A stretch of 63,813 bases of DNA, counting the filler, from Dirinaria sp. TL-2023a (lineage: Eukaryota): NCBI GenBank assembly GCA_051941275.1. It is 33 parts of 33 records of this genome, joined end to end, with 100 filler letters (N's around TTAATTAATTAA, not from the genome) between each part and the next. Parts side by side here need not be neighbours in the genome. Positions count along the whole stretch, not along the records: positions 38,984 to 40,813 come from JAVEBF010002517.1; 32 more parts are not named here. One strand, given 5' to 3'. The translations under genes and the position numbers were made by a program. The number at the start of each line of letters is the position of its first letter. The first letter of the stretch is position 1. Positions 1,966 through 55,655 of the stretch are shown here, one piece after another. Below the pieces are notes generated by a model. That model made no database searches. It was given only the letters and a program-made list of their open reading frames with translations, and was not told the DNA's origin.

Positions 1966-2450
1966 AACATGATATTTCTATCGAGCAAGAACATTGTCAT
2001 CGATAGATCTTCAAGAAAAATCGAAGACAAGATGCTAGAATCTTTCTCGATAATCAAAGTCATAGAAATCTTCTATGAGCTTCAACTCTCTGACATCATG
2101 AGAATACACAATGTATTTCACCCAAGTCTGTTGCGCAAGAATTCCGAAAATCTTTTATCGAGCCAAGTACAAGAATTTCTCGACAAGATCGTCATCAACG
2201 AAAACGATGAATGAGAGCTGATCGATATAGTCAGCTCGCGCTGACATTATGAGAGACTACAATATCGTTGTCGATGAGTAGAAGAAAGGAGTAGAGATTT
2301 GGCATGATACGATATCGATAATGACGAGTTCATGCATGCGAAGAACATCACTCAGAACTATCATCATCGATATCCCGACAAAGCGAGAGACGTCAACAAT
2401 AACAAATCTTCGCAGAGACGTCATCGACGTCATGACTAAGGCATACACGT
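1966..2450 (+). mobile_element. Ty3/Gypsy chromovirus relic: integrase C-terminus (GPY/F) plus chromodomain, mutationally inactivated
   Basis: KMLESF (= GPF), YELQL, RIHNVFHPSLLR, then E*ELIDIVSSR*HYERLQYRCR* with Trp positions turned to TGA. Confidence 0.9.
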
Positions 2451-2469: not shown

Positions 2470-2734
2470 GAGAGGGGGGGGGTAGTGTTACGAGCCTGAC
2501 TCTCACTGTTGTTACCCGGGTCATTTTCTACAAGATTTTTGTGTGTGGTGTTGAGTTTTGACCTGATCGGGGTTAGCGCATCCGGAGTGGTGGTCGGTCC
2601 GGCCGATCAGGGTCCAACGCCCACACATCCATATTATGTCTGGTTCCAGTCCATAGATTTCTTTTCTTCTTCATGCTTTGTGTATTTAGTTGATAGCACC
2701 TGCATAGATCATACCTTCTGCACCGGTCCTGACA
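2470..2734 (+). mobile_element. Polypurine tract (2470-2485) and 249-bp 3' LTR (2486-2734)
   Basis: GAGAGGGGGGGGGTAG directly followed by TGTTACGAG...CCTGACA (TG..CA), downstream of the chromodomain. Confidence 0.88.
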
Positions 2735-2956
2735 AAAGATTCGTGTATAAAAAAAATAACAACGAGATAAATAAATTATTGATATAAAAATATTGAAACA
2801 GCAAATAAATTTATTGCTTATTCGATGTATCTGTTCATGAAGAGCAGATAAATTACTCGTTTTTCGAGCTTATAATCTGTCAAAATTAGATGATAAAACG
2901 CATAATTGCTATCTAGAAACCGAGGAAACGACTCATCTATAATATACAAAGGGTCG

Positions 2957-5891: not shown

Positions 5892-6669
5892 CTCATGACC
5901 TGATTCATTGCATCGTCTCTCATTTTCTTCATCTTTCTTCACTCTTCTACACAGCGCAATGCTGCATCGCGTTTCACTCGATACTTCTTTATAAGATCGA
6001 AAACAGCATCGTCGTCGTTGCGAACTCAATGCTTCAATTGATCGACATTGTTTATGCTTTCGAGAATGAAGATCTGATCTGCTCTCGAAAAAGCCTCTAT
6101 CGAATCATCTGACAACATCGACACGCGACGATTTTCTGTCTTCTGTCACAAGTCTTTCATCATTGAGAGAAGATCCTCATCGTTAATTGAGTTATTGACG
6201 AAGATAGAAGTCTGACTCTGAGTGATCGAAACTCGAAGATTTTGTATCTGTCTAGACATCTTGATCTTATAGATCTTATATCGTAAATCTTCTTATTATG
6301 AGATTCTTAATCTTGCAATTGTTTGATCTACTCGTGCAACGCCGACGAGTGCAAAGATAAGAGTGATAGATAGTGTAATGTCATGATCTGCACAGCGCTC
6401 ATAGACATATGAATACTACTAGACTAGAACACTATCTATGAAAAAGAAAAGGAAAAGGAAATCTAAATACAGATAGGTTTAAATGTGGGATCGAAACAAC
6501 ACCGGTCCGAGGACGCTAAACCTGATCAGACAAAAACACAACACCTCTAGCAAAACACCTGGTATAGACCTTTCCACACACATGTGGTATCCAGAGACTC
6601 TGCTTCAGGGTCCATGCAACCATGTGACCCAATCATGTGATCAGGCCCATAGGGGTCTGGTTCATGACA
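5892..6669 (-). mobile_element. LTR retrotransposon end: 291-bp LTR (6379-6669) plus adjacent degraded, CC/GG-depleted sequence
   Basis: 8-bp terminal inverted repeat TGTCATGA...TCATGACA; on the minus strand it shares CTGATC(A/G)GG(T/G)TTAGCG with the 2486 LTR. Confidence 0.7.
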
Positions 6670-6673
6670 TTAG

Positions 6674-7143
6674 TGTTACGACCCTGGAAACAAAACCAAG
6701 TAGTAAGATAGGCACCAAGTCCTTTGACTTGGTTTAGTTAGTTTTTTGGCGCTGCCGAGACTTTTACCATTGGGAAACCTATCTAACCAAGGTTGGATCT
6801 TTGACATTAAATCAAGTCAACACGGTCGCAAGGTTCTGAGTTCGATTCTCAGCCCGGACGTTTGAAGAGTTTTCGGGTTTTCGGCGAGGCTTTACGACTG
6901 AGAGCTTACTAAGCTCGAGGCGACTACTTAACCGTTTTCACTAAGGCGAACCTCCTATCACACTCTGAGCGTTGAGCTTCGAAACGAAGCTCAGAGAGGG
7001 ATCCGAATAGTGTTACGACCCTGGAAATAAAACCAAGTAGTAAGATAGGCACCAAGTCCTTTGACTTGGTTTAGTTAGTCTTTTGGCGCTGCCGGGACTT
7101 TTACCATTGGGAAACCTATCTAATCAAGGTTGGGTCTTTGACA
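6674..7143 (+). mobile_element. TRIM-like non-autonomous LTR element: two 133-bp LTRs (6674-6806, 7011-7143) around a 204-bp non-coding core
   Basis: Direct repeats TGTTACGACCCTGG...TCTTTGACA differ at 5 positions; purine-rich GAGAGGGA..TAG precedes the second LTR; no clear target-site duplication. Confidence 0.75.
6826..6860 (+). pseudogene. tRNA-like 3' half (variable loop, T-arm with B-box, acceptor 3' strand)
   Basis: TCGCA-AGGTT-CTGAG-TTCGATT-CTCAG-CCCGGAC-G matches canonical tRNA 3'-half geometry, with a T run at 6870-6873; no 5' half found on this contig. Confidence 0.65.
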
Positions 7144-7540
7144 TTTATAATCTGAGATCGATGTTAATTTCTTTTGTTATTGCTGTTTGCATCTCGTCGT
7201 CGTCTGACAGAGAGCAACGTATCAAAAAATCTTCAAAAAATATTTTTATCGTCGTCGATGACGATAACATTTTCAGCAAAAAATTTAAATTGAAACTTGA
7301 GAGATTTAAATCATCGTTTTCGACATCTGCGATCTCTAAAAAAAAAGACAAAAAAAGAAAATTCGCGAAATTCGCGAAACTTATCAAATCATCAAAGTCG
7401 ACAAAATTTACAAAATCTGCAAAATTTTTGCAGATTATAAATTTAAGTTTTGTTTTCGATGATGACGATGATGACGAGGGAAAAAAAGTGATTCTTGATG
7501 TCGCGAAAATGACATAGACAAATTTGAATCAAGAAAATCG

Positions 7541-7753
7541 TGTCACGAGCATGCACCTAGGTATACTACCTGGGGCAATAGCTCTAATGGTTCTCAGGGG
7601 TAATGCGCTAACCTGATCGGGGTACGCGACACCCGCACGCGTATATATCTGGAACCCCCATTGTATCTAGCTTCTCTTCTTCTTCTTTCCTTCCTTAGTG
7701 ATAATATCTTAGTTAACTATACCTGCATTGACTTGCTCTGCACCGGTCCTAAC
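7541..7753 (+). mobile_element. LTR, same family as 29303-29541 and related to 2486-2734
   Basis: TGTCACGAG start, ACCTGATCGGGGT motif, 3' end ...ACCTGCATTGACTTGCTCTGCACCGGTCCTAAC at the contig end. Confidence 0.8.
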
Positions 7754-13722: not shown

Positions 13723-14700
13723 GCTGTCATTACATCAATTATTTTTATCACATCGGTTATTTTTATTACATCTCAAACAAATTCAAGACTTGAGTACAAA
13801 TATTTTACTAACGTTATTTTTTATGATGACGAAAATAAAATCAGAACTCTGAATAATTTAGTAACGAAATATCAAAATATTTTCATCGATAACGATAACA
13901 CAGTGAACATCTCTGAGAATCAATAAATGCTTATAAATTTGAAACAGGAAACTATTTTACTGCAAAATCGAATGACGATTAATCGATCGTGCTCTCATGT
14001 TTATAGACAAAATTCAATAACGTAACACATTCGATAACGAGTTACGCTTTTAACGAGCTTGCATATGAGTTCAAAATCAACGATATCTTGAAACTATTTT
14101 CGAATGTATTCGCGAAGAATTTTATCGAGATCAGACAAATTAAACGAGAAAAAACAAAAACAGTTATAACATTCGTCAGCGCGATTAACAAAATCAGATA
14201 TAACAGAACACACAAAACGATATTCGATAACATATATTTCGACATCATGATATATTTTCGTCTGCATGTCGAATATATCATTTTAGATTTATCAAATAAG
14301 ATTTGTCCCAGCAAGGAGTAAAATCATTTAAAATCATCGAAACAATTGAAAAAAACGTTTTGTTTTTCGTTTTGAATTATCATTTATCATGAAAAGATAT
14401 TCTATAATCTCAGTAACTCAATTAAAATCATTAGCTGATGAAGATTCATATGATAAAACTATTAACACAGACTCATTATCAGTGATGAACGAATATCGAA
14501 ATATCGACGTCTCGTCATATGAGATCGAACGTTTACTAAAAAACGAATCACTAAAAATAAAATTTATTGTTTAATAAAATGAAAAAAACATCATCACGAG
14601 CACAACGCATAATACTCGATCGACGATTTAAACGACGTTATTGATCTCATCGAAGACTTTGAGCGACAGAACATCATTACACGAAAATTCAATCGAAATG
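13723..14700 (+). mobile_element. Heavily mutated Ty3/Gypsy relic; pre-RT region fused to late integrase/chromodomain
   Basis: TVNISENQ*MLINLK, then from ~13950 NELAYEFKIND...IYFRLHVEYII...SYEIERLL; very AT-rich with CC/GG nearly absent. Confidence 0.7.
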
Positions 14701-17626
14701 CTTATGATAACGTTAATTTAAACAACGTCGAACATTATTAAATAATTGTCTGACTTGATTTAAAATGATCGTAAATTATAATTTGAGCATAATTAAATTT
14801 GAGAGAGCACTAATACGCTCAAATGCATACATTCATCTTTTCGCGCTAATATACATTCATTTTTTGCGCTAACAGAATTTATTAGTCAAATATTGTTTAA
14901 ATCTTAGCAAACAACTTTAATCAAATAGTATTTACAACAACTTCTATGAAACGAAACTCTGTTGTCGCATACAAGTTCTCAATCGCAATTAAGACTTTAT
15001 TGAGAGCGACGACATTTAATTTTTGTTTAGTCTCATTATTCTATTTTTGTTGCGTCTGTTTCGCGACAGACAAAAATCTCATCTGAATCTCATTTCAGTG
15101 AGAATCACATCTCAAACTCATTTTAATTTCATTACAATCTCATTTATCAGCTCTGATTCAAATACATCTTTAACAAATTTGTATGAGAAAAAATTATATC
15201 ACAATTAATTAAGATTTAAATTTAAACTCGAAATAAAACAAAAACACGATTAACACACTTTGATTAAGTCATTGACAAACATCATAAAATTATTATTAGT
15301 CGATGAGTGATTCAGTGAGCATAAACTCAACACTGATAAAAAAAATCATTCGCGATGCAAAAATTGCTTGAGAGTATTCAATTAACGACAACGATATCGA
15401 TTTCAAAACGGATTTTATCATCAAACGTATTATATTTAAAAAAATATTATCAAATCTCTCAGTTTTAAAATCGACTGTGAAGTAATTAACAATGATTACA
15501 AAGTCTCACGTTTTAAAATATCAACAAATATTAGATCTGAAGAAAAAACGTTCGTGAAAACAGATTTTAAACTGNNNNNNNNNNNNNNNNNNNNNNNNNN
15601 NNNNNNNNNNNNNNNNNNTTAATTAATTAANNNNNNNNNNNNNNNNNNNNNNNNNNNNNNNNNNNNNNNNNNNNCCGGGACGTCCGTTGAATAGCCAGAA
15701 GAAGGATCAATGCAGCCGCCTTCAGCACCGACGTGGGTATTGGGTGTCGCATCGTATTCAGCGTCGTTGGAACGAGGGTCCCCGTAGAAGGAGGAGTTTG
15801 TAGCGCCAGGGAAGATGTCATGTTCGGGAGAAGGCATTATTGCTTTGTCGGTCAGGTAGATGTTGTTGGTTCCTAAGTACTGTTTAGAACTTTGCCGCAC
15901 AAGGCCATGACAGTGTGTCTACTTACAACGTAGTAGGTATGGTTTTTGGGATTCAAAGAGTCGGTTTGGAAGTATCTGATGGAGTTGGTGGGGAGAGAAA
16001 GAAAGGAACTTCTCCAGAGATCAAGGAGACTTAAGTATGGAGGTTCGCTGCTGAGTGGTACGTCAGCTATTTCCCTGTACTCTTCATTGAGGTGTCATTG
16101 AGCCCGCTTTTGAAACAAAGTCTTAAGAGTTCGTTGGGAAGATGCATCAGACCACCTAATTCGAGACGCGTTTTGCCTTGCTCACTGGCAGTGACTTACA
16201 CTAACAGGGATGGCACTTTCTGGACCTTGCCCATTCCCACAGTCAGAGACTGGAGAATACGTATGCAAATCAACGCGGCCCAATTCTTTAGCGTGGTAGA
16301 GAGATGCCTCAAAAGCTCTGATTCGGTGCATAGCTCGATCAGATTTTAGCAGGCCCCCAAACGCCTCTTCAGCCATAAAGTTTCAAGGTCTGTAGCTGCT
16401 GAACGATAAAACATCCATGTAATGAGGAATTGAATTGACAAGAAGTGAAGGCCATTTTCTGCCGTGAGATGTTTGGTGCGAGCTGATGTTTACTTAGAAT
16501 TTGATGTTCCAAGGCCAAAACAGACCGTCCGCTGCCACGACTAAGGGGGAGACTTGGTACTTTATGAACATATGAGAAGTTCAACGAGCGATACCCTGAA
16601 ACATGAATTATTGCCCACTTGATCTTAGAGCACAAAGCGGCACACTGGGGCTCTCGAGAACAATCCGCCTGTACTGATTACGTCAGCTTCCAAAGTTATA
16701 CTTCCTACAAAAGGCTACTCAACTTCATGTGGCTGCTCCAATCGCCGGTATGGGAGACTATTGTAAGAAGATCCTCGTCAGTGCCGTAATTTGCCAGTGA
16801 TTCTGCGAAATTCGCCATTTTCTAGCTTGATTCTGGTAGACGAGAAATAGGGTAATCAAGTAAGATGATTATCTATGGTACCAATGAGCGTAGGAATGCT
16901 TTTTGCCTCGCGATCTTTCGTTCCAATGTGGCGGCTTGATACCAAGCAGACAGCCGCTCAGCTCTTGTAGGATGAAAGATGCCTGAGATCGTACAATGGT
17001 GCTTTGTTGGAGATACCAGTTGCCGACATCTCGAAAATAATAGTCGTCGTGGTCGTCGTTGTTATTGTTGTGGTTGTTCATCTAACATGATGGACAACTA
17101 CATCTTTCCGGCACAAACCAATGGATGAAGTGACCAGGTTTTTCTTCTCTATCATAACTTCGCTTCTCATCTCATCTCATCAGTATTAAGATAGATTTCA
17201 CGCGTTCAATTGTCGACCGGCTGGAGCAGTGCAATAAGCTTTGCCGACTTGGTCGGTGGCTTTGCCGCGCATACTGCTTCCATTCGACCCAGCGATCCTA
17301 CCTTCGTATATCACTCTCTCTAGACCCTTTCTCTAGTTCCTCGAGAGAATGGCGTGGATCGCAAGCGGCCTGACCAAAAGCTTAGTCCGTATTCTCAGAA
17401 TTCTCGATCGATACGACGATATTAGTCTTCATTATGTTTGGCCATGTTTGCGCTGGGTACCTGATATAAATGTAATTCCGCTAATCGAACTCCAGAGGCA
17501 TGGAAGCGGGCTCGACAAACATATTCNNNNNNNNNNNNNNNNNNNNNNNNNNNNNNNNNNNNNNNNNNNNTTAATTAATTAANNNNNNNNNNNNNNNNNN
17601 NNNNNNNNNNNNNNNNNNNNNNNNNN

Positions 17627-19338
17627 GTAAATATTTCATCAATCGTAATTCGAATGCTTCGATGAAAGACGAGAGAACATTTCGATCAAATAATTCTGTT
17701 TGTCGCTCATGTCATCATCATTCATTTCATCGTTCTGTTTCTCGACGACAGTACGTCTGTGTGAATGCGAAACAGTTTTTTCTGTCTTCGAATCGATTTC
17801 ACTCAAAAATGCGTCAGAGTTGTTGTTGATGTCGACGTTATATTTTTTAGATTTAGAAATCGAAGATTCATCGCGCTCGAGATACATTTCGACGAACTGT
17901 TTCGTGAACTTTTTTCTGAGATGCAACTGATCATAAAGACTTAGTAGATAGAGACGAGTGTAATTCAGTAAATTGAGATTCAATAAATTGATCTCGTGAA
18001 GTTCACATAATCGATCGATCACAATCAATTGAGTTAACGCATCTGCGTTGAATCAGTTTTGAGTTTTGTCAACAATCATGTAAGAAACATACATTTGAAA
18101 AATTTAAAAGTCTTTTGAGAGAGATCTTCGATGTTCACGACAGTTACACTGAAGACGAATGCTGTTTTTAGTCAATGAATGTTCAGATCTCGTTGAAACT
18201 CGCGTTTCAATTGTTTGACTGTTCGAAGTTTAATTAAATAGACTGATCTGTCATCTCGCGTCATCGACATTCAAATTTATCGAATCTTTTTTACAGTCTT
18301 GAGAACGATTATTTTTCACATTTTGTAACAGATCTGAACTCGTTTTCTCAGAGTTTTGTACGTCTCATGAGTTGTTTTGATTCTGAACAACACTCGTCGC
18401 ATCGACTCATTCAGCATTTCTCGAGAAAGATACGCTAAATAATAACGACGAGCTCACATGTTAAACTCTAACACTGTTTGATTTTCGATTTTGATAAAAT
18501 CATTGAAATAACGAGCGTCGAATGATGATTTAAACGACGAAAAATCGATCTGAATGTCATGCGTTTGAGATTAATTTTTTTTCATGTTTGAGAACTCATG
18601 TTGACTGTTCTCATTGCTCGTTCGACTTATTGTGATAAAGAAAGCACGTCGATTTCGTGATGTTTGAAAACTTGTATTTTTAAAATCTTTGACATTAAAA
18701 GCGATCTTGTTTTTGTTTACGAGAGATTTGCTCGAAAACTTTTTGATCATGCTGTCGCTGATTTTTACTGCGAGATCTTGATTTCGCGATGATTCAGATT
18801 CAGCATTCTTGTTGATGTAAGAACTTGAGAGTTGTAGCTGTGTTTTTTTGCGAGACTGAGACGTTTTGAAGATCTTTTTTGCATTCGAATTGAGCTCTGT
18901 GTTTTTTCGCGAATCGTTCTTTTCGAGAGACGTTTTTTCTCAGCTCGAACGTTTTAACAATCTTTTCTGAGAAGCGCTTTTTCTCATGTTCGTTATATTA
19001 TAATCAGATTCATCGTTTTCGTACGTCTGATTCTTTTGAGATTTTATTTTAAATTCATTCATTTTTGAGATCTCGTTGTCAGAGTTTGAATATTGATTCT
19101 CATCTCGCGACTGAATTGTGTTGAACGTCGCGAAAATTTCATGCAAGATATTCGACGTCATTGATTTCAAAGAGAATGCGAAGATCTTGAAACGCTTCGT
19201 GATCTGCAAAAAATTAGTTTGATTAAGAGACTTTTTATTGTTTTTTTACTTGAACACTAAAAGACTACGATGAATTTGAGTTCTCTGTCTGAGAACAATC
19301 ATCGTCATCATTATCTATCGCTCGTTTTCGACGACGAG
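17627..19338 (-). repeat. CC/GG-depleted dispersed repeat, copy 1 (unknown family, degraded ORFs)
   Basis: Colinear with ~25855-27261 over ~1.4 kb; in the part compared base by base the differences are C/T and G/A transitions. Confidence 0.9.
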
Positions 19339-19477
19339 TGTCAAAGACCCAACCTTGGTTAGATAGGTTTCCCAGTGGTAAAAGTCCCGGCAGCGCCAAA
19401 AGACTAACTAAACCAAGTCAAGGGACTTGGTGCCTATCTTACTACTTAGGTGTTCCAGGGTCGTAACACTACCCCCC
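19339..19477 (-). mobile_element. 130-bp LTR (19339-19468) of the TRIM LTR family, preceded by PPT GGGGGGTAG
   Basis: Reverse complement matches 6674-6806 and 7011-7143 closely; the PPT marks it as a 3' LTR. Confidence 0.88.
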
Positions 19478-25418: not shown

Positions 25419-27261
25419 ATGTAAAGAGTCACGAACATTCCTTTTTTTCAGATGAGCAACTCGTCAGAAATCGAAACGAAACACAGTTATTTTCATGTGA
25501 TCATAAAGTTCAGAATTTAGCTAGCATACGTGAATATTTAACATGATAAAGCAAGATGCTAATTAATCGAAAAAACATCTCAGTGCGAAAAATCACGATG
25601 TCTTTTATACAACAGAGAGAATCAAGTTCTCGAAAAAATGATTTATGATATCTGCGACCAAATAAGCGAATAATAATAGCATAAACGCTGATAAAAGAGT
25701 TTCATGAGATTGATACTAAAAAAACTATTGACATAAGCGTCTGCGAAAGAGTTTTCGTAACTGCTCATAATATAATTGTTGATGAAGATGTTTCATGAAG
25801 ATGATACTAAAAAAGTTATTGACATACACGTCGATGAAAGAGTTTTATAAAGCTGTAAACATTTTATCAATCGTAATTCGAATGTTTCGATGAAAAACGA
25901 GAGAACATTTCGATCAAATGATTCTGTTTGTCGCTCATGTCATCATCATTCATCTCATCGTTCTGTTTCTCGACGACAATACGTCTGTGTAAATGCGAGA
26001 CAGTTTTCTCTGTTTTCGAATCGATTTCACTCAAAAATGCGTCAGAGTTGTTGCTGATGTCGACGTTATACTCTTTAGATTTAGAAATCGAAGATTCATC
26101 GCGCTCGAGATACATTTCGACGAACTGTTTCGTGAACTTTTTTCTGAGATGCAATTGATCATAAAAACTTAGCAGATAAAGACGAATGTAATTCAGTAAA
26201 TTGAAATTCAATAAATTGATCTCGTGAAATTCATATAATCGATCGATCACAATCAATTGAGTTAACGCATTTGCGTTGAATCAGTTTTGAGTTTTGTCAA
26301 CAATCATGTAAAAAACATACATTTGAGAAATTTAAAAATCTTTTGAGAGAGATCTTCGATGTTCACGACAGTTACATTGAAGACGAATGCTGTTTTCAGT
26401 CAATAAATGTTCAGATCTCGTTGAAACTCGCGTTTCAATTGTTTGACTATTCGAAATTCAATTAAATAGACTGATTTGTCATCTCGCGTCATCGACATTC
26501 AAACTTGTCGAATCTTTCTTACAATCTTGAGAACGATCATTTTTCACATCTTATAACAGATCTGAATTCGTTTTCTCAGAGTTTTGTACGTCTCATGAGT
26601 TGTCTTAATTTTGAGCAACACTCGTCGCATCGACTCATTCAGCATTTCTCGAGAAAAATACGCTAAATAATAACGACGAGCTCACATGTTGAGCTCTGAC
26701 ACTGTTTGATTTTCGATTTTGACAAAATCATTGAAATAACGAGCGTCGAATGATGATTTAAACGACGAAAAATCGATCTGAATGTCATGCGTTTGAGATT
26801 GATTTTCTCTCATATTTGAGAACTCATGTTGACTGTTCTCATTGCTCGTTCGACTCACTATGATAAAAAAAAACACGTCGATTTCGTGATGTTTGAAGAT
26901 TTGTATACTCAAAATCTCTGACATTAGAAACGATCTTGTTTTTGTTTACGAGAGATTTGCTCGAAAATTTTCTGATCATGCTGTCGCTGATTTTTACTGC
27001 GAGATTTTGATTTCGCGATGATTCAGATTCAGCATTATTGTTGATGCGAGAATTTGAGAATTGTAACTGTGTTTTTTTACGAGATTGAGACGCTTTGAAG
27101 ATTTTTTTTGTATTCGAATTGAGCTCTGTGTTTTTTCGCGAATAGTTTTTTTCGAGAGACGTTTTTTCTTAGCTCGAACGTTCTAACAATCTTTTCTGAG
27201 AAACGCTCTTTCTCATGTTCGTTATATCATAATCAGATTCATCGTTTTCGTACGTCTGACT
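25419..27261 (-). repeat. CC/GG-depleted dispersed repeat, copy 2
   Basis: Homologous to 17627-19030; encodes the near-identical pseudo-ORF MIVIDRL...SSKHSNYD. Confidence 0.9.
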
Positions 27262-29302: not shown

Positions 29303-29541
29303 GGGTGTTTACCCGACACCCGCACACACGCATATATACCCGGGACCCCCTATTGTATCTAGTTTTCCTTCTTCTTCTTTCCTTAGTGATAATATCCTTA
29401 GTTAACTATACCTGCATTGACTTGCTCTGCACCGGTCCTAACATATTGTATCTAGTTTTCCTTCTTCTTCTTTCCTTCCTTAGTGATAATACCTTAGTTA
29501 ATTATACCTGCATTGACCAGAGCTCTGCACCGGTTCTAACA
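29303..29541 (+). mobile_element. LTR with its 3' ~95 bp present twice in tandem (29351-29443, 29444-29541)
   Basis: TATTGTATCTAGTTTTCC...CTGCACCGGT(C/T)CTAACA twice; same family as 7541-7753. Confidence 0.85.
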
Positions 29542-29873
29542 ACACATTAAAATCTACGGCGCTTGCTGTCGTCGAAGCAGCAATAACAAACAAGAGAAGT
29601 AAAACGCTAGTCAGAATAGAGACGATATACATAGAAGGCACATTTACATCTACACTCACATCCGCATCGTCGCAAACTACTTCGCCGTCGTCTCGAAGAC
29701 GCGAATCGCGCACTCGTGCTCACTCGCGCTTCAAATCACTGAATAGAGGTTAGGAAAATGAGCATGAGTATGCGAGAAAGAGAAATGAAGCAGAAAAAAA
29801 AAACATACACGAGATCAAGAGCGTCTCTTCGAAGTCGCGATACGAATATAACAACTCGTTCTAGTCAGTCTCT

Positions 29874-31142
29874 ATGCTAGAAAACGAAACGTTGACGATA
29901 TTACAGTATAACGTGAATAAATCGCGGGTAAGAGTAATGATATCGCTATTCGAAAGCGACGGCATTATCGATTATGATATACTGATAATACAGAAGCTCT
30001 GAAGAAATCTCTTTTAGATAACAACAAACAACAGATTGAGTCAATACTTTGATTTATACTTTCAGAATTATCAGCAAACAAGAGTCTATTTTTATGTCAA
30101 CAAAAGAATTTCGCTAGCATCATACACAGTGTCGTATAGATCATCGAACTTAAATATTATTAACATTGCGGTATCTTCGAAACGAAAGATCAACATACAC
30201 AACATATATAACTCAAAGAAAGATAACAACGATATGAGCACGTTATCGACGTTAAAAAAATTACTAGAAGAGAACCGCGATGACGAGCACATAGTAATCG
30301 GCGATTTCAATTTACATCACCTCAAATGGGAGAGTCAGAGAATTAGAGCAGATGTCGAAGTATATAATCTTATTTTGCTAGCAGAATAGCATAGTTTGAA
30401 AAGAACATTATCGACAGACACTATAACATGAAAACAGATATCACTAGAAAGCACAATAGATCTGATTTTCATCACATCGTTGCTGCGAGAGAGCTTCATA
30501 GAGTGCAAGATAGCAAAGAATATGAAGAGTCACTCAGATCATTATCTCATCAGAACGATTTTGAATTTAAAGACTATATTTGCAGTGAGAAGTGAGAAAA
30601 GAAACTGAGTTAAAATGAAGATAGCAATGCTGCGAGAAACGACACGAGAGTTTATAAAAGAAGAGTCGACACTGAGTCTCGATAACGCGAGCGACAGCGA
30701 TCTGATCAGCAGCGCGATAAACGAGCAAGTACAGCTGCTAATCGACATCATAAAGAAAGCAATTGACGCATCAACATTATTTTGTAGATATAACTCGAAG
30801 ATGAAATTCGACTTCACAGAGAAATGCAAAGAAGTATTTCGCAAAGCTAAAAAACTTAAAAAAAGATATCAACAAAGCAGAGATGAAAAGAACTAAAAGC
30901 GCTACAAAAAAGTCAGAAATCGTTTAGACAAGATCGTCAAGAAAGCAATGACAGCGAAATTTAGAAAAGAGACGACTGAAGTTTGCGAAACGTCAACGAA
31001 GATGTGATCAAGATGCAAGTGAATAAGAAAAGACGCGATGCAAGAAACAAGCATGTCAGTATTATATACTCAATCATCGCTTGTATCAGAAGTCGAATCA
31101 GTAAAGAAAGCAGAAATACTGCTCAAGACGTTCTTTTCATCA
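29874..31142 (+). mobile_element. Tad1-like LINE ORF2 apurinic endonuclease region, inactivated
   Basis: LTILQYNVNKS, IIQKL* (= QEPW), RVYFYVNKRI, IHNIYN, HIVIGDFNLHH, STIDLIF, SDHYLI. Confidence 0.92.
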
Positions 31143-35117: not shown

Positions 35118-36950
35118 CTAAAAGACTGCGACGTCTATCGAGCACTTTCTCATTTAAATCTCTGACTTGAGTATCTGCGATGACATTATCACTCAGTTGC
35201 GCTGTCAGCGCTGCTAGTTTGATCGCAGAAGAAACGCTTGCGTCACTCAACTGCTCAGACTGATACTCAGCAAAACGAAGTTTGTTTTGCAATGTGAGTA
35301 GAAAGTCCTCGTTATTATCGTCGTTTTTATCGAGTGTCATAAGATCGAGTTTTCTTGACAACGCATTCGCGGGATTAAGTTTTCCTTTGCGATACTTTAT
35401 GATAAAGTCAAACGCAGCAAGCTTCTCTGCTCAGCGAATTTGCTTAGCAGTGAGCTTCTTCGTTGTTATAAAATAACGAAGATTATTGTGATTCGTGATC
35501 ACACGAATGAGATGTTGACTATTTTGAAGATAGTGTCTTCAATTTTTAAATCTCAGAATTATCGCATATAGTTTCTTGTTATGCGTGTCTCAGCGAGTCT
35601 TCGTTTTCTTAAATTTGTAGCTAAAGAACGCAATCGAGTGTCATTGACGATCGCGACTCAGTTGACTGAGCACATCATCGATTTCTCGTTTTGAAACATT
35701 CGTTTTCATTTGAAGCGAAGCATCTCAATCATAATGCTGCAAAATAAAAACGCTGATGAACGTCTGTTTAAGTCGTTCGAACGTTTTTTTCGTTTTAACG
35801 TTTCAATTGAACGAGAGACGAGCTTCGCTTTTCTTCGTTTCGATCGTTAAATCAGTTAGCGACGCGATTATTTGCGAGAATCCGCGAATAAAGCGTCGAT
35901 AAAATTTAGCAAATCTCAAGAAAATCAAATGTCTTTTTCAGATTTGAGTATCGATCATTCAGAAATGATTTCGATACGCGATTGTTTCATTTGAATCTCA
36001 CTTTGCTTTACTATGAATTTCAGAAAAAATATCTCACTGCGATTGAAAGCACATTTGAATAACTTCGCGTAAAGACGATGTGCTAACAAGACGCGAAGCA
36101 CTCGACGAACATTTTTTCAATGCTGCTTCTCAGTCTTTGAATAAATGAGAACATCATTCAGATAAATCACACAACACACGTCGATGTATGATTTCAACGC
36201 GCGATTTACATAAAACTGAAAGATAACAGAAACGTTAGTCAGATCGAAAGACATCATTTGATATTCAAATTGATCATAACGAGTACGAAACGCGATCTTT
36301 CATTCGTCGTCTTTGCGGATTCGAATGCGATGATAAACGTTTCTAATATCGATTTTGATAAAATGACGAGCACGCGCGAATCGCTCAAACGTCTCAGAAA
36401 GTAACGACAAAAGATATTTATTCTTGATGATAATCTCATTGAGTTCTCGATAATCAATACAAAGTCTCAAATTATTATCGAACTTCTTTACAAATAACAC
36501 AGACGCTTCGATGAGATCGCTGAATGATCGAATTTAATTCTTTTTAAGTGCATCGACGATGTAATTACGAAGCGTCGTCAACTCATTCTGCGACATATTA
36601 TAAACGCATTCGATACGCGGCAATTTCTTATTCATGAGATCGATCGAATATTCTATCTGATCATGAGTGTTAAAACTGTCGAATAGTACTTCAGAGAACA
36701 TTTCTATCATCTCGCGAAGTGATTTCGAGATGACAGATTTTTTCGTTTGCAACGTTTCACAGCACGTCGCGTTCTCGCTAACGTCGCTCGTGTGAAGCAC
36801 TTGATACGACAAAGCAACATAAGTCTCGTTTTATTCTCGAGTCGCGAGAATAACTAACTCGACAAATCTCTCGACTGAGACTACGTGAATATCGATCGAC
36901 TCAGACGTAGTTAATTCTTAACGATATTTTCAAATACGTTCAAATCATTG
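35118..36950 (-). mobile_element. Ty3/Gypsy pol relic (RT and RNase H), inactivated
   Basis: LFVKK..LRLCIDYRELN, KIDIRNVYHRIRI, AFRTRYDQFEY, YLND (= YLDD), RNase H IAFFS..; many TGA at Trp positions. Confidence 0.93.
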
Positions 36951-38983: not shown

Positions 38984-40813
38984 GAAGAATCACGTTCTTG
39001 GCGTCTTTAGTCTAAAAGATATAGAAAAGGCCCTTAGTATCAAATCTAAGATCAATTCGACGACGAAGCTGTCATCGAAATTCAGTCACTTTCTGAATGT
39101 ATTTTTTCACAAAGAGGCTGACAAGCTTCTCGCGCATCGTTCTTATAATCACAAGATCGAATTACTAGATGATAAGAAGTCAGACTTCGAGTCTCTGTAC
39201 GACATGTTCAGAAACGAACTTCTAGTTCTACAGAAATATTTGACTGAGAATCTAGTCAAAGAATTTATTAGAGCTAGTTCTTCTGAATACTCGTCATCAG
39301 TACTCTTTGTTAAAAAACTCAGTGAAGAACTGCGGTTCTGCGTGAACTATAAAGAACTTAACGCTATCATCAGAAAGAACCGCTATTCTATTTCTCTCGT
39401 ACAAGAAACCTTAGATCGTCTGTGCAAAGTCAAGTACTACTCTAAGATTGACATTATTGCGGCTTTCAATGGTCTACGTGTAGCTTTCGATCACGAGAAA
39501 TACATCGCGTTTCGCACTCGATTTGATTTATTCGAATATTTAGTTATGCTCTTCGATCTTTGCAACGCATTCTCGTTTTGACAACATTTTATCAATGATA
39601 TTCTACGAGAGCATTTAGACGATTTCTGCATCGCGTATCTCGACGACATTCTCATCTATAACAACACTCGTGAAGAGCACATTAAACACGTTATCTGAGT
39701 TCTGAAACAATTGCGAAAAGCTGACATTCAAGTCGACATTGATAAATGCGAATTCTACGTTCAAGAAGTCAAATATCTAGATCTAATTATTACTATCGAA
39801 GACATTAAGATGAACTCTGAGAAGATTCAAGCTATTGTGAACTGAGAAGTCTCGACTACTCTAAGAGAAGTTCAATTCTTCTTAGAATTTGTCAATTTCT
39901 ACAGAAGATTTATTCGAAAGTTCAGTAAAATTGCAGCTCGATTAATTGATCTTATTAAGAAGGAACAATCATTTATATAAATCAAAGATTGTCAAAAAGT
40001 CTTTGAAAAGCTTAAAAAAGTCTTCATTTTCGTCTCTGTACTTCGATACTTCGATTTCGAGCTTGAAACATTCGTTGAAACTGACGTCTTCGATGAGAAA
40101 CTCGATGAGATCATGTCGCAATTAGGACTCGATGAACAGTTATATTCAGTCGTCTTTTTTTTCAAGACTATGTTGTCTGTCGAATGCAACTATGGGATTT
40201 ATGATAAGAAACTCTTAGCAGTCGTTCGAGTTTTCGAGAAATGACGTCTCGAGCTAGAAGATTTCAAATTTTCTATTCAAGTTATGATCGATCATAAGAA
40301 TCTCGAATACTTTATGTTCTTCAAGCTCTTAAATCGTCGTCAAGCTCGTTGATCTGAGTATTTATCACGCTTTCAGTTTCGCATCATTTATCGCTTCGAT
40401 AAACAGAACGTCGCCGCTGATGCTTTAAATCGTTTCGATTCTCGTCTTAAGAAAGAAGATGACAAGTCTCGATGACAAACAGTTCTCAAGCAAAGTAACT
40501 TATCTATTCAAGCTTTGAATCTTCGTGCTTCTGACGTCGATCACGAATTAATCTCATCGACGATAGCTGCGTCTTCTGAAGAAGACTTTCTAATTCGCAA
40601 TGAATTCGAGCCGTCTATCTCAGAAGTCTTCGATGACTCTGTCGACTTCGTTATAGATTCTTCTGCGATTTCTTCGACAACATCGAAATCAACTGTGTCT
40701 CGATTCTCGTCAATTTTCAACTCGTCAATATCAAACACTGAAGTTTTCTTAAATGATCACTTCAGAATCGCTCGACGAAATGATTCATTGTATAAAGAAG
40801 TTCGTCGAGTCTT
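38984..40813 (+). mobile_element. Ty3/Gypsy pol relic (RT and RNase H), inactivated
   Basis: VLFVKK..LRFCVNYKELN, AFRTRFDLFEYLVMLFDLCNA, intact YLDD at 39636-39647, ETDVF, YDKKLLAVV, DHKNLEYF. Confidence 0.95.
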
Positions 40814-44767: not shown

Positions 44768-46591
44768 ATTCAAAGCGTCATCAAAGATAGAATATTTCAG
44801 CGTGTCAAATGCGTCAGATATAAAGCTGTTTATCGAGAAGCTCTGATGTGAGAGATCGTGAATGCGCCTTCAACCGCCAGATGCCTTAGGCACTAGATCT
44901 AGCGGCGACGATATAAAGCGTCTGATAGACTTTCTCGTCATTCGTGTGATGCGGTGAGCCTTTATTTGCTTTTGTAGGTCGGCGGTAAGGATATCAGATG
45001 CAGAAGAAGCGGAAGAATGGTTAGATGTCAAAAATAGGCTTTTCGGGTCGATATATCCGATTTTTGCGCCGTGAGTGAATATTCTGATTAGTGTGTTCGC
45101 AAATTTCTTATCGAGATGCTCTTTCAATCGCATGACTCAATTTGAAGCGTTCAAAGGCTCTGTATCGTCAAGAGATAACTCGTTCGTCGACGTTATGTCA
45201 TACAGAAAGGCTTCGTTAATTGATTGCAGTGTCATAGAGATCGTCGGCGTCGATCTAGACGCAGCGATGAGTCATCGACGCGGGTTCGAAGACAATGGTA
45301 TAGAATTGCTAGATGATAATGCTTGCTTGCATTTCTTCATATCGTGCTCAGTTGACTGACACTTTGCGCAGATATGCTTTCACTTGCAAGCGGGGTCATT
45401 GCAATCGACGGCGTTATTCCATTTATGACAATAACCCTTTGGAATGCGGGTGCTGGGTGCCGCCGAGGTGATCGATGCAGTTTTGACTCTATAAGGCTTC
45501 TTTTTCATCAGGATTCTGCTCTTCAAATGTGTGTTGACTGTGCGTCATTCATCGACGTCGTCTTGACCTTGAATAAGGCGTGCACATAAGAAGGTTTCAT
45601 TGAAGAGCACAACTGAGTCAAAGGTATGCGAAATGAAGTGCTGAAAAATGCGATATCGATATGCGGAGAGCGCCTTATTCAGCTCGTCGCGCAGCTGCAG
45701 CAATGTCAATTGTCGCACTATTTGACAATAGATTTTCATACACATACCGAACTGCGCAATGCTCTTGAACTCGACAGCGACGGCGTCATCGTACTGCGCA
45801 AAGCGATCTGCTCAATCATTTGAAAGCTTTTTGATGTTTGCAGAATTAAAATGATCTCATCAAATCTCAGTGAAGAATTTTCTATTCATCGCTGGGAACA
45901 TTTCAATAAGATATAAGAAAGAGGGTTCTTTATCGTGTTCAGTGCGAAAGAAAGGTCGATTATCTGGCGGCGATGTGTATTGCGCATCAGATGAGGCATA
46001 TAATGAGGCAAAAGGTGAAGATGCAAGTGGCATCGTCGATAATGCTGCCGGCATATCAGGTGAGATAGCAGAAAAGAATCCGTGCTTTTCTCTCAAGGCG
46101 CGAAGTTCCTCCTTCAGTTCGTTATATCGATTTTCTGTCTCAATGTCTATCAACAGACGTTGGATATCTGCATCGCGCGTTGGCGATAAGGTAGGCTGTG
46201 AGTCAGGCATCTTCACCGACGATGAGACGATGCCAACAAGAGTATCGAGTGACGATGACGATGCAGATGTAGATGTCTGCTCCTTCTGAGCACGGCGGGT
46301 GACCCTTCTGACTCTAGTAGACTGACGAACTGAAGGCATCGATGCAACGATGAGATAGAATATTAGATAAAGCGCTTCCGCAGTGCGATATCGAGTGCGA
46401 TAATCAGCAGGCGATGAAGCAATTCCGAAAGTCAAAGGTGGTGCCGATGAGGCATTATATGCTCACCCATACACACTGTCAAGCATGCTGCGAAAACCAC
46501 ATCGCCAATGTTGCTACCTGCATCAGGGAGGCCTACCCATGCTGCTAACTGCATCGGGAAGGTCTATGCTTGTATGCCCTGAGTCAGCGAC
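44768..46591 (-). mobile_element. DIRS/Ngaro-type (tyrosine-recombinase) retrotransposon: gag with Cys/His fingers and start of RT, partly mutated
   Basis: CHKWNNAVDCNDPACK*KHICAKCQSTEHDMKKC; GAKIGY...FISSPLDLVPKASGG*RRIHDLS...SINSFI. Confidence 0.82.
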
Positions 46592-50537: not shown

Positions 50538-52354
50538 CTTTTAGATCATCTCATTTGACGTCAAGCGAATCAATCTAAAGCAATCAAATAATGACCAAAA
50601 ATTACAGTGACGTTTTGAAATGTGATCGACAAGATCACGTTGCGATAATTTTGACAGAAACTGACTTCGCTAAATCAATGTTTGCGCTGCGTTTGATATA
50701 AAGCCTAAGAGAATCAATTTTTGCTAGCAAACTAGTAGCTTTCAGAACATACTTCAACAAATGTTTCGAAAGATGACAATCAACGAACGTTGAAGAGTCG
50801 TCTCGTAGCTAGTTGTCACGCGGTCGATCTGCTTATGATCTAATCGACCAACTGTCACATCGTGAGTTGAAACAGAATCAAGAACTACACGATTCGCATG
50901 CGATCGCTCTGATATCAACAATCTCAGACTTCTTCAGAAGTTTTATATATTACTTTCTCTAAAGCATAGGATCGAGAGGTTTTGAGACCTCATTGTAATC
51001 GCATTTCTTGCGAACAAGGACTCGTCATCTGCAAACTTTCATAGTCGCATGAGTGTTAGTACTAACATCGTCTGATAAAGGAGAACCCGAAATACATGAT
51101 AAATGGTACTTGTTTGAGCAGCGAAGTCCAAAAAAAAAGGAGTCATCCACACAATATCTATGATCTTCAAAAAAGACTGGATGTGCACCCCATATGTGTT
51201 ACACACGCTCAAAGGTGATGTTTATCGAGAATGACTTAAGCATCGTTTTTTGATAAGCGCCATGGAACGAGATTTATGATCAAGAGCGATGTTCGTTATA
51301 GGAATTAGCTATACTGAGCGCCTGAATGCATATCTTCAGTGCGAAGCTATCTCGTAAGAAACTTGTGGCATCGAAGCTGTGAGACAGTGACTAGTTGATT
51401 CAGTCGATAACCAACATTGCAATATGTGAACATAATCTTATTCATGCGCCAAGTCAGACTTTGTGCTATTATTAACTAAGTTGATATGATGCTTCAGCCC
51501 TAGATTTTTCAAATCGGTGCTCGAGACTCAAGATGACTCTTCTGTCATCGCTGCAAGAAGCGCGCTGAAAGTTTCCCCTTGTTTCTTTCTTGTGCATTCC
51601 TTTATTCGCTATCTTCATCGTATTCATTCTCATTCATCTCATCATTCTCGTACTCATCGTCAGAGCTGTCGTCATATTTCGACGTAGATATTGAGTAGTT
51701 ATCATCATTTTCATCGCACTCTCTACCCTCTCCTTCACTGTCTCTTGAGAATTCACTATCATCTTCACTCTCAACATTATACTCATGCATACACATATAC
51801 TCTTTGCCACTATTATCGTTCTTGAAGCTACTACATACCTCGTCATCCTGACTCTCGGCTTTGATAAGTTGATAAATCTGCGCTAACACGATCTTCTCGA
51901 TCGCATTGCAGTAGATTGACGAAGCTCGATGCTTCGCTACTTTGACTGCGATCTCTAACCAATCGATTTGATCTAAAAGAGATTCTAAAACCCTTTGAAG
52001 TTTCAGCGAGAAGATATTCAAAATCGAGTTCGACAATGAATGACATAGACTAACGATCGAAGAGTCACGTAAGAGAGTTGTGACATTTCGTTCGTCTTCG
52101 TGTTTCGTTGCGTGAACTAGATTATCTCATGTTGTTTCAAATGAGATAAAGAAAATCCCCTCGATCTCCGAGATCATCGAATAAGAAGTGAGCGAGTAAA
52201 CGTGAAGAGATTGAGAGTTTCGCGAAAACAAGAGAGATGAGAGTCGAAGATATTGAGCTGACAGATCTGTCGTATTTGAAACGTTCATGAGTAAGATATG
52301 ACAAATTGACTTTCAGAAGAATTTTCTGCTACTGCTCTTGAGATTGAGTAGATT
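50538..52354. repeat. Probable degraded repeat of unknown family
   Basis: CC/GG-poor and TCGA-rich like the transposon relics; broken ORFs including an acidic tract; no domain recognised. Confidence 0.5.
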
Positions 52355-53048: not shown

Positions 53049-54270
53049 CTATCTCTCTCCAGCCTCTTTAGACCCCAAGAGTCGCATTTCCATTGCTAGT
53101 TCCGCAGCGGCAATTTCTGAGCACTCTTTTGAGCACTTCCCATCCACTCTGGCCACCTCGCAATCGTTTATCTCAACCACGCATAGGCCAGTCCTTAGAC
53201 CATTTGCGTCATTGCCATGTATATATGCAACTTTCTTTCCTGAGAAAAGCTCACACAACCGAGACTTAGGATGGCGTAGATCAATCTCATGGTCGAAGAA
53301 GTGTCTTAATTGGGTAAGAACACCAACATCCTCCGCAAACGACTTACACTGCGTCAGATCACCTTTGCTATCGATATAGATAGCACCGAGTAGACTTTGA
53401 ATAATGTCAGAGAAGAAACTATCCGCAGCTAGTCGCGCTAAATCTTGCCAAGGATAAAAGGACCCATCTGATAGAGCTGATCGGATTGATTCGGAATATT
53501 TTGTGTACCGTTTGAGGGATTCGTCCCTTCCTGTGGCGATTGCGGCACCACTGCATCTTAAAAACTTCCATATAAGGAGTGATTCACGACTATCCGCGCT
53601 ATCATATTCGTCATTACTGGTCTCTGCATTATCAGCTACTTTCATATCTAGTGACGCCCCCATGCAGAGAAACCCTAGGAAATCTGCATTGGTGGATGCT
53701 GCTTTACAGAGATGCATTTTATCCCGAGAAAGGAACTGAACGTCGCGAGTCAAACACTCGGTAACAACCATCTCTAGGACGGCATCCCCCAAGAATGCAA
53801 GCCGCTGATAACTGCAGGTCGAAATGCTCCAATCGCAAGACGGATGTGTCATTGCTTCTACCAACAGACTCTTATCATGAAACGAAAGGCCCAGTAAAGG
53901 TTCCAAGTCCATGAAGTGGGGGGGGAGCTCCTTGGGTTTTGGTCGGGACGTGATGTAAGTACCATCATATAAAGCCGCCCAAGACCATTCTTTGATCTCA
54001 GGTAGAAAGAACCTTGCGCAATCTATTGCATTGGATAGATCTTTATCTAAGAAAGCAGCTCCGATCAAGGCTTCGACAGCACCAGCCAGCAGCTTCACGG
54101 CCAATAGCCTCTCTCCTCTGGACCGGCTAGCTCCTATCTCGGAGATGTAGAGTGGTTTCCAGTTATGACCGTTGAAGTTCGTGGTGAGAACGAATTCGTC
54201 CAAACCAGCCTTCAATGCCGCTTCGACCAAACGGCTATTGGATACGATCAAGTCCCTTTGCTTTGAGAGA
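53049..54270 (-). CDS. Dicer-like (DCL2-type) C-terminus: end of RNase IIIa, RNase IIIb and dsRBD; catalytic residues substituted
   Basis: IVSNSRL...VEALIGAAFLD; LLVEAMTHPS..SYQRLAFLGDAVL; FFSDIIQSLLGAIYIDS; HPKSRL...AEIAAAE-type end. Confidence 0.9.
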
Positions 54271-54370: not shown

Positions 54371-54790
54371 GTTTTAACGCAAACATGTCAGTTTCTTTGA
54401 ATATATGCTCTTTTTTTATGACGTTAAACGCACGCAATTATCATGTGATCTGCATGTTTAATATGTTCAAATTAGAAATATGTTTTCTGTTATCGTCTCT
54501 TACGCAGAACAATCATTTTTCGAACAATGTGAATGTCGTTTAAATTTTGCTCAAATCTCAAACATCTCAATCATTTCTGATGAATATGATGATCGAGAAA
54601 AAAATTAAACAAATTTGAGAAATTTGCAAAATAAATTCATGCGACGACATCTCGTGCAAACAATCATTGACTGTTTTCGAGAATTATGTTACAGCGTTTC
54701 AGCTCGATCGATCGTTTTTTGAAAATCATCATTGTTGCACATCATGACATTTGATTTTTTCTGATTCGAAGACTGCTCGTTTCGTTTCGA
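54371..54790. repeat. AT-rich, CC/GG-depleted repeat relic abutting the Cys-rich gene
   Basis: Same dinucleotide signature as the other relics; abrupt change to normal composition at ~54795. Confidence 0.6.
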
Positions 54791-55655
54791 GTCTTCAGTG
54801 TCTGCACCTTCAGGCACCTAAAGAACCTCCAGCCAACCTCCATTGCACCTGCACCAACGAATGCACGCGCCGCTGCGTCTGCCGAAAATGGGGTTCCGGC
54901 TGCTCCAACGCTTGCGGCTGCGTCTCCCAATGCCAAAGCCAACTGAACGATCTCCCTACGCTCTTCAGTCAAGACGCTGATCTCGACAACCCTCTGCGGG
55001 CAACCCCCTGCTTCACGCGCTACCTGGCCAAACACCATGGCCCTGATCTCACACGCGATGAATTCGTCGAGAAGCTGCGCTGCAAGATGATGGAGACAAG
55101 ATACGGAGAATATACCCTCACGGATAGCGCTAGTTGGGCCTTCGATGAGCGGCAACAATTTGGCAGCGAGGACTTCATGGCCAGGTGGGGTAAAACCTGG
55201 AAAGCAGGTCTCGATACCGCTGAAAGCGCGAATGAGCTTGTCAGGCGTGACGCAGCTATACGGGCACTGTTACGATACGGTCTCACCACCGAGAAGCCCG
55301 ATGAAGCGCACTGCGATGAGTGGTTCTACTCATTCTGTCGCGGGACCTGGGAAAGAGATATGGGTCTGTGGCATTGCAGGCAAGCAGTCCCACCTCATCG
55401 CAACATGGCGCAAGTCGCTAACCAGCAAGCAGACACTGTCACGAATGCATGTCCAATAAAATGTGGCACTGCTCTCGCTGCAAAAAATGCGTGCCTGGCG
55501 GCAGCATCGATAGAGATATGCCATGCGAGACATGTGGAGGAGTGTCTGATTCCTATAATGAGCTCGCTGTGAAAGGTTATATTCCTCCGGATGGATATAT
55601 TGGTCCTGATCCATGGGGGCCTCCGCCGGATGATTACGACTCGGATTATATGTAA
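54751..55655 (+). CDS. Cys-rich protein with CXC/tesmin-like N-terminal cluster and C-terminal CxxC zinc ribbons; start codon unclear
   Basis: CTCTNECTRRCVCRKWGSGCSNACGCVSQC; GC-AG intron 55380-55432 (GCTAAC branch) gives WHCRHCHECM..WHCSRCKKC..PCETCGG. Confidence 0.65.

Follow-up and report, generated by a model that had tools for sequence, protein, structure and literature searches.

Repeat-induced point mutation, or RIP, is the textbook genome defence of fungi, and what determines its dinucleotide context is unknown. In Neurospora crassa, its target is CpA, which becomes TpA (PMC2621366; PMC4352252; PMC3318451), and the threshold for its action lies at about 400 bp and 80% identity (PMC3318451). 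Here we describe a stretch of 63,813 bases (the window) from the assembly of Dirinaria sp. TL-2023a (GCA_051941275.1), a Pezizomycotina-like fungus, in which transposon relics have lost nearly all of their CpC dinucleotides, probably through hypermutation of the RIP type. The window is not a single locus. It comprises 33 contigs of 1807–1865 bp each (sorted by length, all ~1.8 kb), joined by spacers that are runs of N around TTAATTAATTAA. Because the contigs were simply joined, distances between features on different contigs are meaningless. Contigs are named below by the window position at which they begin (e.g., c38984), and it was on c38984 (38984–40813), which holds the reverse transcriptase (RT) and RNase H of a Gypsy element, that the original prediction of such a process was centred.

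The contexts of RIP-like processes vary among ascomycetes. CpT is favoured in Magnaporthe, Botrytis, and Sclerotinia and CpG in Tuber and Aspergillus, a variation that has been tied to Dnmt1 subclasses (Amselem et al. 2015, PMC4352252). These biases are partial, involving 10%–40% of copies (PMC4352252). In Pucciniomycotina, a RIP-like hypermutation of transposons at TpCpG has been inferred from sequence alone (Horns et al. 2012, PMC3318451). In Ascobolus, methylation induced premeiotically (MIP) leaves repeats methylated, not mutated. A different kind of defence is provided by APOBEC3G, which acts before integration on minus-strand cDNA, deaminating CC at its 3′ C, so that GG>AG and TGG>TAG changes appear on the plus strand only. 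For RIP and DNA methyltransferases, specificity resides 3′ of the target C; for AID/APOBEC deaminases, it resides 5′ of it. RIP of the Neurospora type depends on RID (Dnmt1 class I) or DIM-2 and takes place premeiotically.

The depleted tracts of the window resemble RIP as known from Neurospora and most Pezizomycotina in several respects. The changes are nearly exclusively C:G to T:A transitions on both strands, only repeats are affected, borders are sharp, genes fill with stop codons and missense changes, the tracts become AT-rich, short repeats may escape, and it is the base 3′ of the target C that determines the context. The difference lies in that context: here CpC becomes TpC, with hardly any change at CpA and no enrichment of TpA. 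The order, CpC >> CpT > CpA >> CpG, is nearly opposite to that of RIP in Neurospora. Compared with the partial signatures of PMC4352252, the loss of CpC is near total, and CpT is a secondary target here as well. The Pucciniomycotina process likewise hypermutates transposons from C to T in a RIP-like, context-specific way, but it needs CpG and a 5′ T, whereas none of 168 CpG sites compared in the window is variable and, in related loci, the 5′ base has no effect. APOBEC3G editing shares the CC context and the inactivation of retroelements by G-to-A and Trp-to-stop changes; unlike in that system, it is the 5′ C that is hit here (GG>GA and TGG>TGA, with six TGA and no TAG in the c38984 frame), both strands are affected, and in related elements the changes come after integration. 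In contrast to MIP, there is massive mutation.

Depletion of CC and GG in the window

The GC content of the contigs is bimodal (0.28–0.40 vs. 0.42–0.55). Contigs of normal composition (0.42–0.55) carry ascomycete-type genes, including those for NB-ARC and ankyrin proteins, a LaeA-like methyltransferase, and a fragment of a Dicer-like RNase III, and the Atlas assignment is to Ascomycota. Observed/expected ratios (O/E) for CC/GG were computed strand-symmetrically, contig by contig, for all 33 contigs. Depletion is present in seven contigs (c13723, 0.08; c17627, 0.22; c25419, 0.02; c29303, 0.34; c35118, 0.05; c38984, 0.13; and c50538, 0.34) and in parts of four more. The partly hit c44768 has a ratio of 0.56, and the remaining 25 contigs fall at 0.77–1.17. 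Across the seven depleted contigs, O/E is 1.34–1.71 for TC/GA, 1.29–2.21 for CG, and 0.42–0.80 for TA.

The scale of the depletion is best appreciated from raw counts. There are 6 CC and 10 GG in c38984 versus 203 TC, 159 GA, and 105 CG; shuffled versions of this contig (n = 2000) give 122 ± 9 CC+GG, with a minimum of 86. Over the 1721 bp of tract 17627–19347, there is no CC/GG at all (105 expected), and the corresponding counts are one in 25441–27261 (104 expected), three in 35385–36950 (107 expected), and six in 39472–40813 (89 expected). Borders between depleted and normal density are sharp and lie inside contigs in c1966, c5892, c17627, c29303, and c54371. As depleted and normal DNA meet within single contigs, both kinds must belong to one genome. 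Within this ~60-kb sample, depletion is confined to repeats, and 25 ordinary contigs have normal CC O/E.

It is important to note that the indices in common use do not detect these tracts. RIP is scored when TpA/ApT exceeds 0.89 and (CpA+TpG)/(ApC+GpT) is below 1.03 (cut-offs quoted in PMC3897900). The depleted contigs have TpA/ApT values of 0.47–0.84, under the cut-off, and (CpA+TpG)/(ApC+GpT) values of 1.01–1.27, and the tracts are scored as not RIP-affected by the standard TpA/ApT and CpA-based indices. An index built on CpC instead, (CpC+GpG)/(TpC+GpA), is 0.01–0.15 in depleted contigs versus 0.36–1.31 in the others. The original prediction had anticipated under-detection by TpA-based indices, and surveys relying on TpA/CpA indices would miss this defence.

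Direction and context of the changes

The RT of c38984 can be read in one frame across 609 codons, interrupted by six TGA, one TAA, and no TAG, and no TGG remains. We compared it codon by codon with 60 homologues that have normal Gly+Pro content, using the 309 alignment columns at ≥70% agreement. Not one of the 18 conserved Gly columns has GGN (GAN in 16, AGT in one, and AAC in one). CCN is similarly missing from all 24 conserved Pro columns, which have TCN (11), CTC (4), TTC (2), or other codons (7), and the four conserved Trp columns have TGA (3) or TAA (1). Six of the 17 conserved Ala columns read GTC, and GCC is absent among the others. CGN is retained in 15 of 21 conserved Arg columns, CAY in all five His columns, and CAA in five of six Gln columns. 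Therefore, CC>TC and GG>GA both occurred on the coding strand, and CpG and CpA were preserved.

A second view of context comes from two copies of an unclassified repeat (positions 1–1404 of c17627 and 437–1841 of c25419), which are 93.7% identical over 1405 bp and differ by transitions at 85 of 88 substituted sites. No CpC site remains in either copy. Variable C/T sites account for 33 of 89 CpT on the plus strand and 24 of 76 on the minus strand, for 13 of 84 and 13 of 109 CpA, and for 0 of 84 CpG on each strand. The target order in the window is CpC (exhausted) > CpT > CpA >> CpG; in other words, CpC is the first target and not the sole one, with slower mutation of CpT and, after it, of CpA.

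The original prediction had proposed, from the letters of the contigs alone, a RIP-like signature with CC>TC and GG>GA on one strand, CpG and CpA spared, and Trp codons mostly converted to TGA. Composition and codon comparison both bear out the CpC target, the sparing holds in the window genome (CpG variable at 0 of 168 sites, and Arg CGN and His/Gln CAN codons retained), and the stop codons of the c38984 frame are of the kind expected.

The same signature in related elements of other fungi

For the c38984 RT, the top 120 relatives in the database (the RT/RNase H is 59%–64% identical to the best of them) were classed by Gly+Pro content. Among these 120, 32 have <2% Gly+Pro, eight are intermediate, and 80 are normal, and the closest subfamily (P0121–P0125) spans the normal, intermediate, and depleted states. 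For one depleted protein, P0130, 33 loci (L001–L033) were retrieved from public metagenome contigs. Many of them are CC-depleted (O/E 0.00–0.06), in some cases over the full 10.8-kb locus, with sharp borders to normal flanks. In nested relics, the whole 10.8 kb is depleted, long terminal repeats (LTRs) included. The same Gypsy family also has lighter copies (O/E 0.43–0.71), some of which are inserted within fully depleted DNA.

The least-mutated natural copy, L009, served as the reference for losses. Relative to it, heavy copies have lost 84%–88% of CpC, 15%–40% of CpG, 5%–18% of CpT, and 1%–8% of CpA, and light copies have lost 44%–69% of CpC and ≤3% of other contexts. C>T and G>A make up nearly all of the substitutions, and each of the five light copies has 0 to 2 transversions. 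The comparison of L001 with L009 yields 239 C>T/G>A changes, 10 reverse changes, and no transversions, a profile that marks burst-like mutation. In heavy copies, CpC was lost at 359 of 360 sites where the base after CC is A, at 338 of 340 where it is G, and at 591 of 620 where it is T. CCC was lost at 163 of 369 sites, the outcome to be anticipated if mutation of the middle C shields the first. The 5′ neighbour of the target C has no effect in these loci. Strand-processive action was considered and rejected, given that every copy has C>T and G>A changes intermingled along its length (runs-test z from −2.6 to +0.4). Mutated sites common to light copies exceed only slightly the expectation under independence (e.g., 54 vs. 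41.9); in these related elements, the light copies were mutated independently, copy by copy.

An LTR element integrates with two identical LTRs. Ten of the elements have both 273-bp LTRs, and 165 of the 166 differences within elements are transitions. In light elements, these differences are at CpC (15 of 15 in L003, 13 of 13 in L009, 14 of 14 in L022, and 7 of 10 in L020). It is therefore copies already integrated in the chromosomes that the process acts on, and reverse-transcription editing is ruled out for this Gypsy family.

As for the hosts of these loci, a fragment of proteasome Rpt4 beside L009 has 100% identity to its Loxospora ochrophaea counterpart and 99% to the one in Schaereria dolodes; the two species are lichen-forming Lecanoromycetes. 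Rpt4 is also 98%–99% identical across several other classes. The related loci probably belong to lichen-forming fungi, although the placement is tentative. The Rpt4 gene itself (L009:9754–10716) has normal composition, lies ~1.7 kb from the lightly mutated Gypsy copy, and stands beyond a sharp limit of the mutated tract. CpG has a different fate in some of these loci. The CC-free copies L015–L018 have CG O/E of ~0.3, and L028 has 0.00 at a GC content of 0.23. This loss, versus CG O/E of 1.3–2.2 in the window, suggests that a second process runs more slowly or that the species differ.

The protein used to retrieve the loci is itself a product of hypermutation. P0130 (L001:4001–6787) is without Gly or Pro, and all 18 of its Trp residues are TGA in the DNA; it represents a hypermutated relic translated with TGA=W (code-4-type). 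Hypermutated relics carry almost exclusively TGA stops and can in this way enter databases as misread proteins, and the other Gly/Pro-poor entries (of the 32 among the 120 best matches) may have arisen likewise.

Interpretation and alternatives

The observed spectrum, direction, and context of change, its presence on both strands, its restriction to repeats, and its sharp borders make up the case for a C-to-T hypermutation of the RIP type that is restricted to repeats and acts after integration, with CpC>TpC (GpG>GpA on the other strand) as the preferred target. We put the probability of this reading at roughly three in four. The trigger would be the recognition of repeated DNA, and the catalyst may be a DNA-methyltransferase-like enzyme (RID/Masc1 or DIM-2 type) with an altered choice of 3′ neighbour. 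Near-complete loss of CpC on both strands of multi-kb transposon copies would destroy their genes, with Gly becoming Asp or Glu, Pro becoming Ser, Leu, or Phe, and Trp becoming TGA. Action would halt at sharp borders and spare adjacent genes as well as short repeats. After the exhaustion of CpC, CpT and then CpA would be hit more slowly, and CpG would stay untouched in this genome. On the broader proposal, that CpC-type RIP is a distinct, clade-wide repeat defence of this ascomycete and lichen-forming Lecanoromycetes, in which recognition of the RID/DIM-2 type has been re-specified from CpA to CpC, we find ourselves evenly divided.

Specificity for the 3′ neighbour suits a methyltransferase equally well, and it is conceivable that heterochromatin-associated or MIP-like methylation of repeats prefers CpC and is followed by slow deamination of 5-methylcytosine, with no active premeiotic mutagenesis. 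The gradual CpG loss (15%–40%) in older related copies does resemble a slower process running in parallel. However, passive decay of this kind should add ordinary substitutions and indels. Light copies, having lost 44%–69% of CpC, show ≤3% loss elsewhere and nearly no transversions (0 vs. 239 directed changes in L001); the LTR differences within elements are all transitions save one of 166; and the c38984 RT has no frameshift in 609 codons despite losing all of its Gly, Pro, and Trp codons at conserved columns. We consider passive decay unlikely. In our view, it is very improbable that an AID/APOBEC-like deaminase acting on single strands edited the RNA or cDNA of retroelements during retrotransposition, such that copies are born mutated. 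All classified victims are indeed retroelements, and the unmutated LTR 3′ of the polypurine tract in c1966 recalls the editing gradient of retroviral cDNA. Yet C>T and G>A are both saturated on the same strand, which the original prediction had already held against this explanation; the specificity is at the 3′ neighbour, with no effect of the 5′ base; LTR pairs of related elements diverge by transitions (165 of 166), at CpC in the light elements; and entire 10.8-kb nested-relic loci are depleted, LTRs too.

One could also dispense with a mutational process altogether and suppose that the low-GC contigs derive from another organism, consist of intrinsically CC-poor elements, or reflect a sequencing or assembly artefact. 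The fragmented assembly and the bimodal GC content are what such an explanation has to offer, but we give it hardly any credence: depleted and normal DNA are joined within five contigs, the codon comparison shows directed change away from ordinary coding sequence, the same family occurs in normal, intermediate, and fully depleted states in other assemblies, and a chemical conversion artefact would not confine itself to CpC or to repeats. Ultraviolet-type dipyrimidine damage was rejected as well, TpC being enriched, not lost, and the effect being confined to repeats.

Some observations weigh against hypermutation of the RIP type, at least in its simplest form. Single-copy DNA is judged from 25 short contigs only. 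The evidence for post-integration, copy-by-copy action comes from elements of other fungi, the contigs of the window not being long enough to contain both LTRs of an element. All classifiable victims are retroelements (Gypsy or LINE, a long interspersed nuclear element), with no DNA transposon or duplicated host gene among them; the process may therefore be either “repeat-induced” or “retroelement-directed.” In c1966, depletion stops about at the pol stop codon, and the G9 polypurine tract and the LTR (2433–2745) are normal, which a model of RIP acting on whole elements would not predict. As a conjecture, this border fits if homology to the partner copy stopped at the end of the coding region. 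Lastly, CpG is not spared in older related copies. Its sparing is therefore a trait of the window genome and not of the signature, and does not extend to all fungi that carry the CpC signature.

Novelty and implications

A CpC preference in a repeat-killing genome defence appears to be undescribed. In a full-text literature search, which did not extend to supplements, we found no account of CpC-dominant hypermutation, although a mention in the ascomycete RIP-context survey of Clutterbuck (2011) is possible. The signatures named in PMC4352252 are CpA, CpT, and CpG, and “CpC” is absent from its text. In the RIPCAL paper (PMC2621366), CpC>TpC is merely one of four formal categories and CpA dominance is reported. 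RIP indices and sliding windows are the basis of the analysis in PMC7882544, whose text is without “CpC.” OcculterCut (PMC4943192) has no mention of CpC or TpC.

Near-100% loss of CpC with CpG untouched is a clean natural contrast for comparing RID and DIM-2 orthologues. If CpC-type RIP is clade-wide, it would account for the AT-rich fraction of lichen-fungus genomes that defies assignment, TpA-index surveys would have been wrong to score such lineages as RIP-poor, and there would be a natural contrast for locating the residues behind RIP's sequence context. AT-rich regions in lichen metagenomes resist taxonomic assignment (PMC9907504), and we conjecture that they may be of CpC-hypermutation origin.

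Affected elements and other features

The affected elements, depleted tracts, and adjoining undepleted LTRs are listed in Table 1. Pfam was run on read-throughs with stops represented as X. The Gypsy RT/RNase H and LINE endonuclease domains so recognized support the earlier claim that unrelated element classes are hit.

Table 1. Hypermutated elements and tracts of the window, with neighbouring undepleted LTR sequences (positions in window coordinates)
Feature	Position	Strand	Remarks
Gypsy pol 3′ end (polyprotein C-terminus), depleted	1966..2430	+	0, 4, and 4 CC/GG per 150 bp
265-bp LTR, normal CC/GG density	2483-2745		After intact G9 polypurine tract; 18 and 22 CC/GG per 150 bp
Depleted relic tract	5892..6450	.	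3 CC/GG vs. 40 expected; normal DNA adjoins in same contig
Two undepleted 138-bp LTR units, 96% alike, TG..CA ends	6671-6808, 7008-7145	+	Flank ~200 bp
Depleted relic tract between two undepleted LTR sequences	7134..7555	.	2 CC/GG vs. 21 expected
Most degraded tract	13723..15574	.	GC 0.28; CC 2, GG 4; CG O/E 2.21
Unclassified repeat, copy 1	17627..19335	.	0 CC/GG in 1721-bp tract
133-bp LTR, undepleted, reverse orientation	19339-19471		Adjoins repeat copy 1; polypurine tract at contig end
Unclassified repeat, copy 2	25419..27261	.	CC 2, GG 0
LTR-like ~95-bp units, undepleted	29303-29540		First ~240 bp of the LINE relic's contig
LINE relic, Exo_endo_phos_2 endonuclease domain, CC/GG depleted	29545..31142	+	Pfam
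Second Gypsy relic, RVT_1 and RT_RNaseH, one frameshift	35118..36950	-	Pfam; CC 3, GG 4
Gypsy RT/RNase H relic (contig of the original prediction)	38984..40813	+	Unbroken frame 38985-40811, no frameshift; CC/GG depleted throughout
Lightly hit element	44768..46591	-	CC 37, GG 68; O/E 0.56; SPLDL..GG* at 44870-44908
Unclassified repeat, partly depleted	50538..52354	.	CC 34, GG 14; O/E 0.34
Depleted tract, sharp end at normal-composition coding region	54371..54806	.	0 CC/GG vs. 23 expected

The motif sequences on which the original prediction was built are all present: CAGAAGCTCTGA at 29991–30002 in the LINE relic, GAATCTTTC at 2038–2046 in the Gypsy pol end, and, in the c38984 RT, ATGCTCTTCGATCTT at 39546–39560 (MLFDL) and TATCTCGACGAC at 39636–39647 (YLDD). 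In the second Gypsy relic, YLDD has become YLND (36153–36164, minus strand). The SPLDL..GG* motif of the lightly hit element likewise exists on the minus strand, but its assignment to Ngaro is unconfirmed. The contig gives a weak match to DUF7816 (E = 0.0031, under the gathering score) and nothing in favour of that label. Stops in the frame of this element are 10 TGA, no TAA, and one TAG. The repeats of c13723, c17627/c25419, and c50538 are without a Pfam family and are left unclassified; a Pfam search over all six frames of c13723, c25419, and c50538 returned no family matches.

Short LTR sequences (133–138 bp with TG..CA ends, plus a type of 95–265 bp) recur unmutated in four contigs, at 6671–7145, 7526–7753, 19339–19471, and 29303–29540, and look like young insertions into relic DNA. 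LTR units of 133–265 bp are multi-copy in the sample and keep normal CC/GG density; they may be too short, too young, or both, and their escape fits either a length threshold or youth. The segment 6671–7145 looks like a miniature, that is, a short unmutated derivative of an LTR element nested in relic DNA. A tRNA scan of 5892–7753 found none.

The Dicer-like RNase III fragment among the normal-composition contigs (53052–54269, minus strand) includes a pair of RNase III domains. Among its named relatives, the best, from Aspergillus tanneri and Pseudogymnoascus sp., are only 38% identical, and unnamed database entries reach 77%. The distance of the named relatives suggests that the host belongs to a poorly sampled lineage.

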